NCBI GenBank assembly: GCA_044892525.1 | Contig: CM097885.1 | Span: 7,566,001-7,626,000 of the forward strand | Length of the DNA stretch: 60,000 nucleotides | Source: Schmidtea polychroa | Lineage: Eukaryota | Direction: 5' to 3' | In this document: one piece after another, positions 33,101 through 47,263 of the stretch | Numbering within the stretch: position 1 is the first letter of the stretch | Layout: every line of letters begins with the position of its first letter | Notes under the pieces: model-generated | The model's database searches: none | Told to the model about the DNA's origin: nothing | What the model saw: the letters and a program-made list of their open reading frames with translations, nothing else | Translations under genes and position numbers: made by a program

Positions 33101-36100
33101 GGTGATGATTTACATATAAATTCTTTCTCCCTGTTCACTCCCCTTTCATCATAATCTTATTTTATTTGCAGTGAATTATTGATAAATTCTATTGATATAT
33201 TTGTGCTGGTTGATTTATGAGAAAAGATGTATTAAATTTCATTTGATTATTAAGTGAGAGAGAAATGAAACCATAAAAATTCTTCAATGATGTTTTTTGT
33301 GTGATTTCTTGTATTTGAATATGTTTAAACTTGTTGGTATCTATGTCAACAATTGTTTACAATTTTTTAGGTTTTTATAGTTATAAAAATGATTTTGTTC
33401 AATGATCATTTATTAAACTAAAGCTTCATGACTGGAGAGGGGTTCCTAAAATGATCAGATAACTGCTTTCTCTTTGGAAATAAGATAACATTTGCATAGC
33501 TTAGTACTATTTTATTTTACCAGAATAATAGGAAATTTATTTTTCTTCATTTATTTATCTTCAGATCTTGATAGGGTTTTTCGGATAAAAATTATGACCA
33601 TATGTTTCATATTCTCATCAGAATTTAACTTTCAATGGACTAACTCAATGGTTATTAACACATAGGTTTTGAGATAGAAGAATTGAATGAAAGTCAGAAA
33701 AGTTGAAGAAACAGCAATTAAAAATGAACATGTTGATTTAACATCTAAATTCATATCTAAAACCTTTATACGAACTTCTATGCTAGCTTTATCAATGAAT
33801 GTTTCAGAATTTCATTTACACATCTACTTTTTTTTAGGATTTTTCTTTTTTAGTATAAATACAATATTAAAGAAAATATTTTTATGGGAAATTTGGGTTA
33901 TTTATATCACGTTTACAAGTAATTTGTAAGTATATTATATTATAAATAAAAAATTTTAGTATATATAGAAATACAATTGTTTTTATTATAACAAACACTA
34001 AATAATGATATAGATTTAAATAAAACGAAAAGCACCAAATCCAATGTATATATTTTACTACAATATATTTCGACAGAATCACTGTCATCTTCAGGTAGAA
34101 TTGAAAATCAAACTAAATCAATATAAATTGCTCTTTTTTAAACAAGCTAATTAACTAATTCATCAATTTTTTAAAAATTAATTTCACTAAAAATTCACAA
34201 AATTCTGTTTTTTCAATTCAAACTTTAAAAATTATAAAACTTTTAAAATTTTAAAACTTTTAAAACTCACAAAAGTTGAAATCAAACAAAATCTTAAGAA
34301 ATTTTTCACAAAATTGTGTTTACTAATATTAATCAATTCCTTCAGTCCATAGTGATCAGGAACTTGAAAACGGAAAATTATTTTTAATTACAAATTTAAT
34401 AATTAATATTTAATCGATAAAATAATAATACCAAATAATAAATATAATTTTCCACAATTCAATGAAAATATTTAGCAATTCAATGTTAATTGTAAATGCA
34501 AAACATCTTCTGTTTTCCTCCCCATTGTTATTTTAATATATTTATTTTACTAAGCGAAAACTGACGTAGAAAAACTAAAATATAAATTTCAATTCCGTCT
34601 TTTCAATAATAAAAATGAATAGGTTCTTAATAGCAGTATAAATTAAATGTTAAATAATAAATAAGAATAAATAATAGTTTTATTTATAAGATGAAAATTG
34701 TCAATTATGAAATCATCCTTTTCAATATACTTCAAAATTTAGATGTAATGTTCAATGTGTGCTTTTGTGCTTTCTTTAAAATATATTATCGACATTTTGA
34801 TTGGATATAAATCTGATTTAAACGATATAACATGTAAGCAACAACTAAAAATTCGAAATTTAATAAAAATTCTTAAGAAATTAAAACTAAAAGAACGCCA
34901 AGGAATATAAATGGAATTTTAAAGTTTAAAATGATTTTTAATTTTTAAGTATTTTTAAAATCTTTTTAAATTGAAAATCTTTATATAACGAAAATAAATA
35001 AAATATTTCAACCACCTCAAATGATAATCAGATTAAAGATTCTTCACGATTCTTATTTAGAGTTAAGTGTTAGCTGTTACTCTCTTACGATAATTAATTA
35101 TTTTAATTATTGACTGATAGTTTTTCCAATAAGATCCATGTGCTCTTTAATTCTTTGCATTTAATAAAATACATTAAGTGGCCGAGAAGATGGGCGAATA
35201 CTAAAGATTTTGAAATTGAAATATTATATAGTGGGGAAGGATAAAAATAGGGTAAATATACATATACATCACAAAAAGTGATGATAAACTGTGAAGAGAT
35301 GATACTAAAATTCAAGACTTCGATGTTGATTTCGTGACAATATTTGATGAATTTATTAACAATTATGATGTGATTTATTAACTCATTTATTTGTGTGTTA
35401 ATTTTAATTTTATTTTTTTGGTTATTTTTATGTAGTAAATAATGATGACAATTATTGATTTTTAAACAATATTAAATATTTTATTTCTATTACAATAAAC
35501 CCCCATACATATACAATAATTATAATTAATTGATTAAACCCGATGTAATAATATAGTAATATTTAAAAGTAGATGGATTGGGCACCGCTGGCACAGGGCA
35601 CCGCTAGCACAGTACCCCCTCCCCCCGACAGGAAAATTTAAAAAAAAATTTTTTCAAGGTCAAATTTTAAACAAAGACATATGACTCATCAAGGTCATTG
35701 AAACAAAGACCATTACTCATCCGATGACTCATTAAATTTCTCAAGGCCATTTAAACAAAGACCATGACTCATCCGATGACGCATCAAGGACATTCTCAAG
35801 GTCGTGTGACTCATCCAAGGTCATTACCAAGGTCATATGACTCATCCTATGACTCATCAAGGACATTTTCAAGGTCACCTGAGTCACCCTATGACTCATA
35901 AAAATTTCCAAGGCCGTCGAAACAAAGACCATGACTCATTCAAGGTCATATGACTCATCCAAGGACATTCTCAAAGTTATATGACTCATACTATGACTCA
36001 TCAAGGTCATCTGAGTCATCCTATGACTCATCGAGGTCATTTTCAAGGCCGCGTGACTCATCCAAGGTCATTCCCAAGGTCATATGAGTCATCGCGATGA

Positions 36101-47263: not shown

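Follow-up and report, generated by a model that had tools for sequence, protein, structure and literature searches.

The locus analysed here raised the question of how an element with the ends of a Maverick/Polinton transposon came to consist largely of inverted repeat and to encode none of the core genes of that group. It lies in the window (the whole stretch of Schmidtea polychroa DNA under analysis, 60,000 nucleotides of contig CM097885.1), and it is very probably one centre-deleted copy of a family of 13-17-kb palindromes whose copying and integration probably depend on enzymes supplied in trans by same-ended, gene-bearing Mavericks (referred to below as helpers). The features of the element and its host gene were as follows.

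21149..47263, plus strand: PF03619 (TMEM184-type) host gene, with the element in the intron ahead of the exon at ~46504
35562..35567, no strand: left TSD TTTAAA, a 6-bp TSD being typical of the family
35568..36413, plus strand: left terminal segment, common to gene-bearing type-A Mavericks (80-88% identity in pieces to helper TIRs)
36450..38126, plus strand: AT-rich tandem arrays of the left arm, with units of 9-120 bp and runs of ATT, also present in the palindrome family
36356..44739, both strands: 70-80-bp motif in six copies (plus strand at 36356, 38141, and 38656; minus strand at 40675, 42605, and 44739)
38372..38501, plus strand: 5' part of a RING gene copy, covering exon 1, the short intron, and the beginning of exon 2, where the deletion cut it off
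38490..38515, no strand: deletion junction 38501/38502, where the left arm meets a point of the other arm ~50 bp from the loop edge
38502..41720, plus strand: apparent non-coding core, in fact the inner stretch of the parent palindrome's right arm, which survived the deletion
41721..42374, minus strand: RING (zf-C3HC4_3) gene (predicted exon 42374-42318, 42-bp intron, exon 42275-41721)
42244..45622, minus strand: right arm including the right terminal segment, carrying a 434-bp tandem duplication (~43703-44571)
45623..45628, no strand: right TSD TTTAAA

The exons of the PF03619 gene flanked the element (profile positions 1-213 upstream and 235-267 downstream). The location in intron 6 of TMEM184C, as proposed by the first-pass annotation, stood as an intron of a TMEM184-type gene, while the number 6 fitted but depended on a candidate sixth exon from ~30514 without Pfam match. 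The rest of the window contained a tandem array of ~100 copies of a 35-bp unit with strong strand skew (3092-6576), exons of a SacI-domain gene (8402-12795), a tandem array of ~18 copies of a 36-bp unit (24826-25472), a broken transposase-like ORF pair with a weak DUF659 match (52122-53915), and a Gypsy-type element with reverse transcriptase (54663-59190).

The element extended from AGTAG at 35568 to CTACT at 45622 (10,055 bp) and was flanked on both sides by TTTAAA, which agreed with the AG...CT ends and the 6-bp duplication annotated earlier. Arms of ~2.9 and ~3.4 kb around a ~3.7-kb core, amounting to ~60% inverted repeat, had likewise been proposed, and measurement gave 2,939 bp (35568-~38501) and 3,379 bp (~42244-45622), i.e., 63% of the element, with an apparent middle of ~3.7 kb between them. 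Arm-versus-arm alignment displayed 2,712 matches and 62 mismatches, indels being confined to tandem arrays; no mismatch was found across the 335 bp of inner arms compared, and the 434-bp duplication was confined to the right arm. The left terminal segment was organized as AGTAG end, short GC-rich repeat, TGA(C/G)TCA-rich tandem array, ATT run, and end motif, and the first 560 bp of the element contained 17 TGASTCA (maximum in shuffled sequence, two). The 70-80-bp motif occurred in gene-bearing Mavericks only at the inner TIR end.

Compared to Maverick/Polinton members, the element possessed AG...CT termini with short terminal repeats and a 6-bp TSD, but its arms exceeded the TIR range of 0.1-1.5 kb, the helper-like terminal segment alone measuring ~0.85-0.95 kb. 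Vertebrate Mavericks have published TIRs of 46-1,447 bp, the general range is given as 100-1,500 bp (accessible text of PMC8097293 and PMC10748475), and TIRs of ~2 kb are reported for gene-bearing butterfly Mavericks (10.1101/2025.02.07.637071, in the part available). When ten ORFs from gene-bearing relatives were searched against the element by tblastn, the RING ORF alone matched and the nine core/terminal ORFs were absent, in line with the earlier statement that viral core genes were missing: the element contained neither pPolB nor integrase, and capsid proteins, ATPase, and protease were absent too. It is therefore not an autonomous member. Hidden genes in the middle were considered and rejected: the six read-through frames of 38502..41720 gave no Pfam match, nor did the 12 frames of two copies taken together; inner-arm indels followed a non-coding pattern (6/34 multiples of 3); and an Rfam search of the inner arm returned no match.

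The terminal 22-mer of the element (type-A end) had 1,583 exact matches in the genome against none for the reversed control, which excludes a chance origin; the first 100 of these matches formed 36 end pairs with a median spacing of 19 kb, two of them at 10.5 kb or less. A perfect 6-bp TSD was present in 14 of the 17 other end-paired copies with this terminus, comprising 13 different hexamers, none of them TTTAAA; the remaining three copies were composite or lay within larger inversions. TTTAAA is therefore target DNA, and the ambiguity raised in the first-pass annotation, that a palindromic TTTAAA could not be told from a TIR extension, is settled by these copies. The larger pPolB/integrase-bearing copies with the same ends that it had suggested searching for were also found: type-A gene-bearing copies measured 18.2-19.8 kb, their terminal 22-mer was identical to that of the element, and four of them contained a 1,250-1,350-aa ORF with three pPolB motifs. 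Such motifs were recognized in all six longest ORFs of same-ended 16-20-kb relatives, although a Pfam search of gene-bearing relatives gave no DNA polymerase match. Pox_A32 (A32-type ATPase) and Peptidase_C5 were detected by Pfam in the helpers above the curated cut-off and the rve integrase below it, and a 427-aa helper ORF was jelly-roll-like and a candidate capsid by atlas lead; the same-ended 16-20-kb relatives thereby appear to encode the Maverick/Polinton gene set, with the capsid assigned by lead. The proposed non-autonomy, with gene-bearing helpers of the same ends elsewhere in the genome, is thus borne out. Gene-bearing Mavericks also encoded a TBP-like ORF (Pfam TBP, E 1.2e-15; L004:4590-5051).

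The accessory RING gene reported earlier was real (Pfam zf-C3HC4_3, E 1.8e-9) and common to the element and its helpers. Its frame in the element was open with one zinc ligand lost, it had 87-89% DNA identity to a terminal RING gene in three of the eight other gene-bearing type-A copies, and the helper gene contained the same short intron. The gene was probably picked up from the end of a helper and carried along as a passenger. Close relatives of the element had RING frame breaks in both arms, and pN/pS versus helpers was ~0.3, a value that mixes past selection with decay; in this lineage it has the appearance of cargo in decay. An atlas search with the RING protein yielded leads only, all under 0.9.

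The middle of the element (4.0 kb) was 97.5% identical to both arms of the palindrome at G000:C1:35691584-35708961, a 17,378-bp, TSD-bounded, near-perfect palindrome with 8.3-kb arms and a 663-bp loop; a second palindrome, at G000:C1:3043575, was covered by a nested retrotransposon. The element corresponded to the 17.4-kb palindrome minus one continuous ~4.5-kb block, which held the loop together with the adjoining 3.8 kb of inner left arm and ~50 bp of right arm; the remaining 2.8-kb length difference fell in the outer tandem arrays. In the parent family, elements of 13-17 kb had arms of 6-8.7 kb and no core genes. An inner-arm 26-mer had 1,291 genome matches, the first 100 of which gave 28 inverted pairs (22 at 1.9-2.5 kb) plus 44 singles; a loop 26-mer had 398 exact matches, and the loops of eight palindrome copies were 89-99.8% alike. 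The parent family combined helper ends, a TSD of helper length, absence of core genes, and many dispersed insertions, as a non-autonomous Maverick should. Kapitonov and Jurka reportedly described non-autonomous Polintons in 2006.

Two side observations concerned the palindrome sites. The covered palindrome (G000:C1:3043575-3076217; L011-L012) carried in one arm a 15.3-kb Gypsy whose two 1,078-bp LTRs were identical and whose gag and pol were separated by an in-frame fusion-glycoprotein domain, a layout known from planarian elements (PMC6431247, in its accessible text); elements of ~32 kb had been considered as a retro-Maverick chimera and were rejected as such, since the one pair read out of four proved to be a palindrome into which an LTR retrotransposon had inserted. 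The same 6.9-kb insertion with the same TSD was present at two loci separated by 276 kb (L064-L067), which represented a segmental duplication, not two insertions.

Shortened copies were collected with a RING first-exon marker (658 matches), the first 100 matches giving 28 inverted pairs: 13 intact-sized, six of family E (see below), one shortened family-E copy, and eight shortened type-A-like copies including the window element. The marker that selected these eight centre-deleted copies lies 4 kb away from the palindrome centre, and five of the copies were read at their centres only. Their breakpoints lay 18, 45, 50, 52, and 68 bp from the loop edge in five copies, 231 and 761 bp from it in two, and inside the loop in one, and all eight junctions differed. 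Five of eight breaks at 18-68 bp has a probability of ~5e-7 under uniform breakage, for an interval set after seeing the data; breakpoints of another sample, forced near the loop by its marker, were left out of this count. The samples came mostly from the first third of contig C1. The junction 25-mer of the window element matched the genome once (one mismatch allowed), which disposed of the 10-kb form as an amplified family of its own, and six copies with 4.5-4.6-kb marker spacing, a candidate amplified deletion subfamily, all proved to belong to the third foldback family, which differs in its ends and its loop. Of the advice in the first-pass annotation to look for further ~10-kb copies with other TSDs, the part concerning size was answered by TSD-bounded shortened forms of 5.8-10.5 kb, each with its own junction; none of them shared the junction of the window element.

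The first-pass annotation had regarded the element as a non-autonomous or copy-back derivative relying on a helper. Copy-back-like rearrangement did occur in the system, other copies in the genome having a body that was an inverted helper end, but the core of the window element matched palindrome arms and not helper sequence, so the 10-kb form is not a direct product of this kind. The loop and the inner ~2.8 kb of the arms had no match, apart from the 70-80-bp motif, in 11 sampled gene-bearing copies; the palindrome family is therefore not a simple snap-back of a present helper. A version that bypasses the 17-kb copy, with the 10-kb form arising in replication as a partial copy-back and integrating once with no later deletion, seems rather unlikely: a unique junction fits a single insertion equally well, the inner arms are identical, and gene-bearing elements do have partial copy-back forms, but the element follows the order of a full palindrome that lost one continuous block, the join is clean, no inverted segment was added, and long chromosomal palindromes usually end in asymmetric central deletion (PMC8701086, in its accessible text). 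Central deletion of a full palindrome is the preferred origin of the window copy.

The origin of the arms was addressed through the 1.1-kb inner arm of 12 two-armed copies, which displayed 86 private variants present in both arms, 16 in a single arm, and no cross-copy pairs; arms differed by 0-0.8% in 11 copies and by 7% in one. A new variant starts in one arm and yet both arms have it, so it must have been copied to the other arm. Arm-to-arm likeness was lowest in the outermost tandem arrays, so that chromosomal conversion or array slippage may also have played a part. Helpers exhibited the same kind of rearrangement: (i) four of five loci chosen for inverted pPolB matches had 3.7-5.8-kb arms with 97.5-99% identity, two of these four gene-bearing snap-backs being TSD-bounded (11.9 and 10.6 kb); and (ii) a type-E copy of 16.7 kb (G000:C1:9628182-9644901; L111-L112), TSD-bounded, had 5.7-kb arms with 99% identity, each containing a 1,326-aa pPolB ORF, while the segment between the arms held integrase and capsid-like ORFs and an ATPase ORF was missing, so that one of the two type-E 16.7-kb copies examined was a snap-back form with two whole pPolB ORFs. 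Overwriting of one end by the other is therefore recurrent in the system. In two type-A gene-bearing copies (L001-L002 and L005-L006), a partial, inverted copy of the gene at the opposite terminus stood in place of the RING end and lengthened the TIR. C1:1346303 was rejected as an arm extension; it had inverted flanks and no TSD.

Gene conversion equalises the arms of sex-chromosome palindromes, and arm identity could have the same source here. The long arms would then form and stay alike in the chromosome through break, fold-back, and gene conversion, the helper only moving the product. Three elements centred in inverted duplications reaching into their flanks indicate that fold-back also affects the surroundings of integrated copies, the arms of one copy come from two lineages, and the greater difference of the outer arrays would suit this route as well. 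The excess of both-arm over single-arm private variants argues the other way, as do RING frame breaks common to both arms in several copies and the occurrence of the same loop at ~400 sites, by which the palindrome form itself transposes; a purely chromosomal origin is held to be rather improbable, and equalisation during replication is preferred.

Assembly artefact, whether of the central deletion or of the palindromes generally, is very improbable. Long palindromes are hard to sequence (PMC8701086, accessible text), and when the junction region (38140-38900) was compared with contigs of four runs, none of the 32 matches listed bridged the junction (10,294 further matches lay beyond these; no RNA data set was among the matches listed). 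Against an artefact, each copy has its own TSD and its own array lengths in each arm around a common non-palindromic loop, the window element has its 434-bp duplication in the right arm and not in the left, and the junctions differ among the deleted forms.

The comparison of ends was also applied to two further end types. Type-B ends (1,103 matches) bounded 16.1-16.8-kb gene-bearing elements (three of 12 examined) and palindromes of 13.0-15.8 kb whose loop and inner arm were common with type A, and type-E ends (286 matches) bounded a 16.8-kb gene-bearing element and palindromes of 13.8-15.2 kb. The latter constituted the third foldback family (E), namely G000:C1:32557026-32570874 plus five more (L095-L104), with a 370-430-bp loop unrelated to the A/B loop and a RING gene in both arms that mostly retained its full set of ligands. 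Each of the three end types thus comprised a gene-bearing element and a foldback family at 78-96% of its length, the window element reaching 51-55% of helper length. The terminal repeats of A and B were nearly unrelated, each palindrome type matching the ends of its own helper, while the shared A/B core diverged by 2-9% (first 2 kb), comparable to the capsid (6.6%) and integrase (8.7%) genes; a midpoint-rooted core tree needed two end-label changes. These data are compatible both with a switch of ends and with a core that diverged along with the helpers.

Several end-paired copies deviated from this scheme. Five elements (L009-L010, L051-L052, and L056-L058) had mutually inverted flanks instead of a TSD and therefore lie inside larger inverted duplications. 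MITE-sized Mavericks were rejected, both short B-ended pairs examined having inverted flanks and no TSDs. One type-B copy (L041-L042) showed a 6-bp TSD only if its right end was allowed one extra terminal triplet, which might be a product of slippage at protein-primed initiation.

Scarcely credible, and largely refuted as far as these sequences can tell, is a foldback family moved by a cut-and-paste transposase of another class, as in Drosophila Foldback or Galileo, its Maverick-like ends being incidental: the element does have long internally repetitive TIRs, and those of Galileo are extended by recruiting inner sequence (PMC3573991, accessible text), but its terminal 22-mer and its TSD length are identical to those of pPolB/integrase-bearing copies, in all three end types the foldback family pairs with a gene-bearing Maverick, and the same-ended copies encode Maverick proteins where such a transposase should be found.

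The preferred mechanism starts from mobilisation in trans by helper polymerase and integrase, to which the shared ends and TSDs point. Maverick replication has been modelled with a fold-back 'racket' (PMC4196379, in its accessible text). In protein-primed strand-displacement replication, the displaced strand would fold back via its inverted ends, and template switch or repair would then overwrite one end with a copy of the other. Arms could thereby reach any length, a full hairpin being the limit, and would be made equal again in every round; this replicative fold-back with end-over-end copying is considered probable. The helper integrase would very probably insert the product. With good probability, the hairpin would be fragile at the stem-loop junction, where breaks would remove the loop and much of one arm, and the resulting 6-13-kb forms, like the window element, would not multiply. 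Strict panhandle copying predicts neither the lesser likeness of the outer arrays nor the copy whose arms are 7% apart.

Amplified palindromes may, as one tentative possibility, stay near helper length through capsid size selection. Adenovirus genomes below 75% rearrange, and a 15-kb (half-size) vector was packaged as direct and inverted dimers (PMC4189039, as described in the accessible text); together with the palindrome lengths set against that of the window element, this makes size selection a live option. The TSD-bounded snap-backs of 10.6 and 11.9 kb are shorter than 75% of helper length and so count against a strict limit. According to the accessible part of PMC8097293, no animal Maverick particles have been observed. 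It is conceivable, though somewhat doubtful, that free capsid-packaged Mavericks throw off snap-backs, that giant hairpins without genes, filled up to 78-96% of helper length, became inherited satellites of at least three Maverick lineages and swap ends and modules among these, and that undersized copies are dead ends; if so, the genome would be a fossil record of defective-interfering particles and of the packaging size limit of an animal Maverick.

The window copy itself is a decayed by-product, with value as one among the deletion products. The system gives sequence-level tests of Maverick replication and particles through the equalisation of 6-8-kb arms, the snap-backs, the length match, and the break hotspot. 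Palindromes of 13-17 kb in their hundreds also make a genome fragile and hard to assemble, and such satellites are invisible to surveys starting from pPolB and integrase. In the literature searched, planarian papers included (most subscription papers, Repbase, and supplements lying outside the search), no description of a giant palindromic non-autonomous Maverick was found; new here are the anatomy of the deletion, the pairing of helper and satellite in three end types, the snap-back forms of helpers, and the hotspot at the palindrome tip.

Compared to known systems, the element and its relatives shared with Mavericks/Polintons the AG...CT ends, short terminal repeats, and 6-bp TSD, together with 15-20-kb gene-bearing relatives carrying pPolB, integrase, ATPase, protease, and capsid-like ORFs, but they differed in having arms of 2.9-3.4 kb (6-8.7 kb in the parent family) and no core gene. 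Copy-back/snap-back defective viral genomes and AAV snapback genomes resemble them in that an inverted end copy gives a panhandle or palindrome that keeps its ends and depends on a helper; these are transient molecules of helper sequence, from RNA viruses or parvoviruses (PMC13506859 and PMC8235507, in their accessible texts), whereas the palindromes here are integrated, inherited, and present in hundreds of copies, the main family being mostly non-helper sequence. Drosophila Galileo likewise displays repetitive long TIRs, longest in non-autonomous copies, with TIR extension and chimeric copies, but its TIRs reach only ~1.25 kb and it uses a P-superfamily transposase (PMC3573991, accessible text), while the palindromes here have arms up to seven times longer and Maverick ends. 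Undersized helper-dependent adenovirus offers a gene-less linear genome that needs only its ends in cis and forms inverted dimers near helper length; those vectors are engineered and their packaging is proven (PMC4189039, accessible text), and the parallel to the satellites here is a lead. In palindrome centre deletion, finally, asymmetric loss breaks the symmetry and stabilises the palindrome, as it would in the window element; the centre deletions in the accessible text of PMC8701086 are mostly small with spacer-less junctions, whereas here a 0.66-kb loop and kilobases of one arm were lost.
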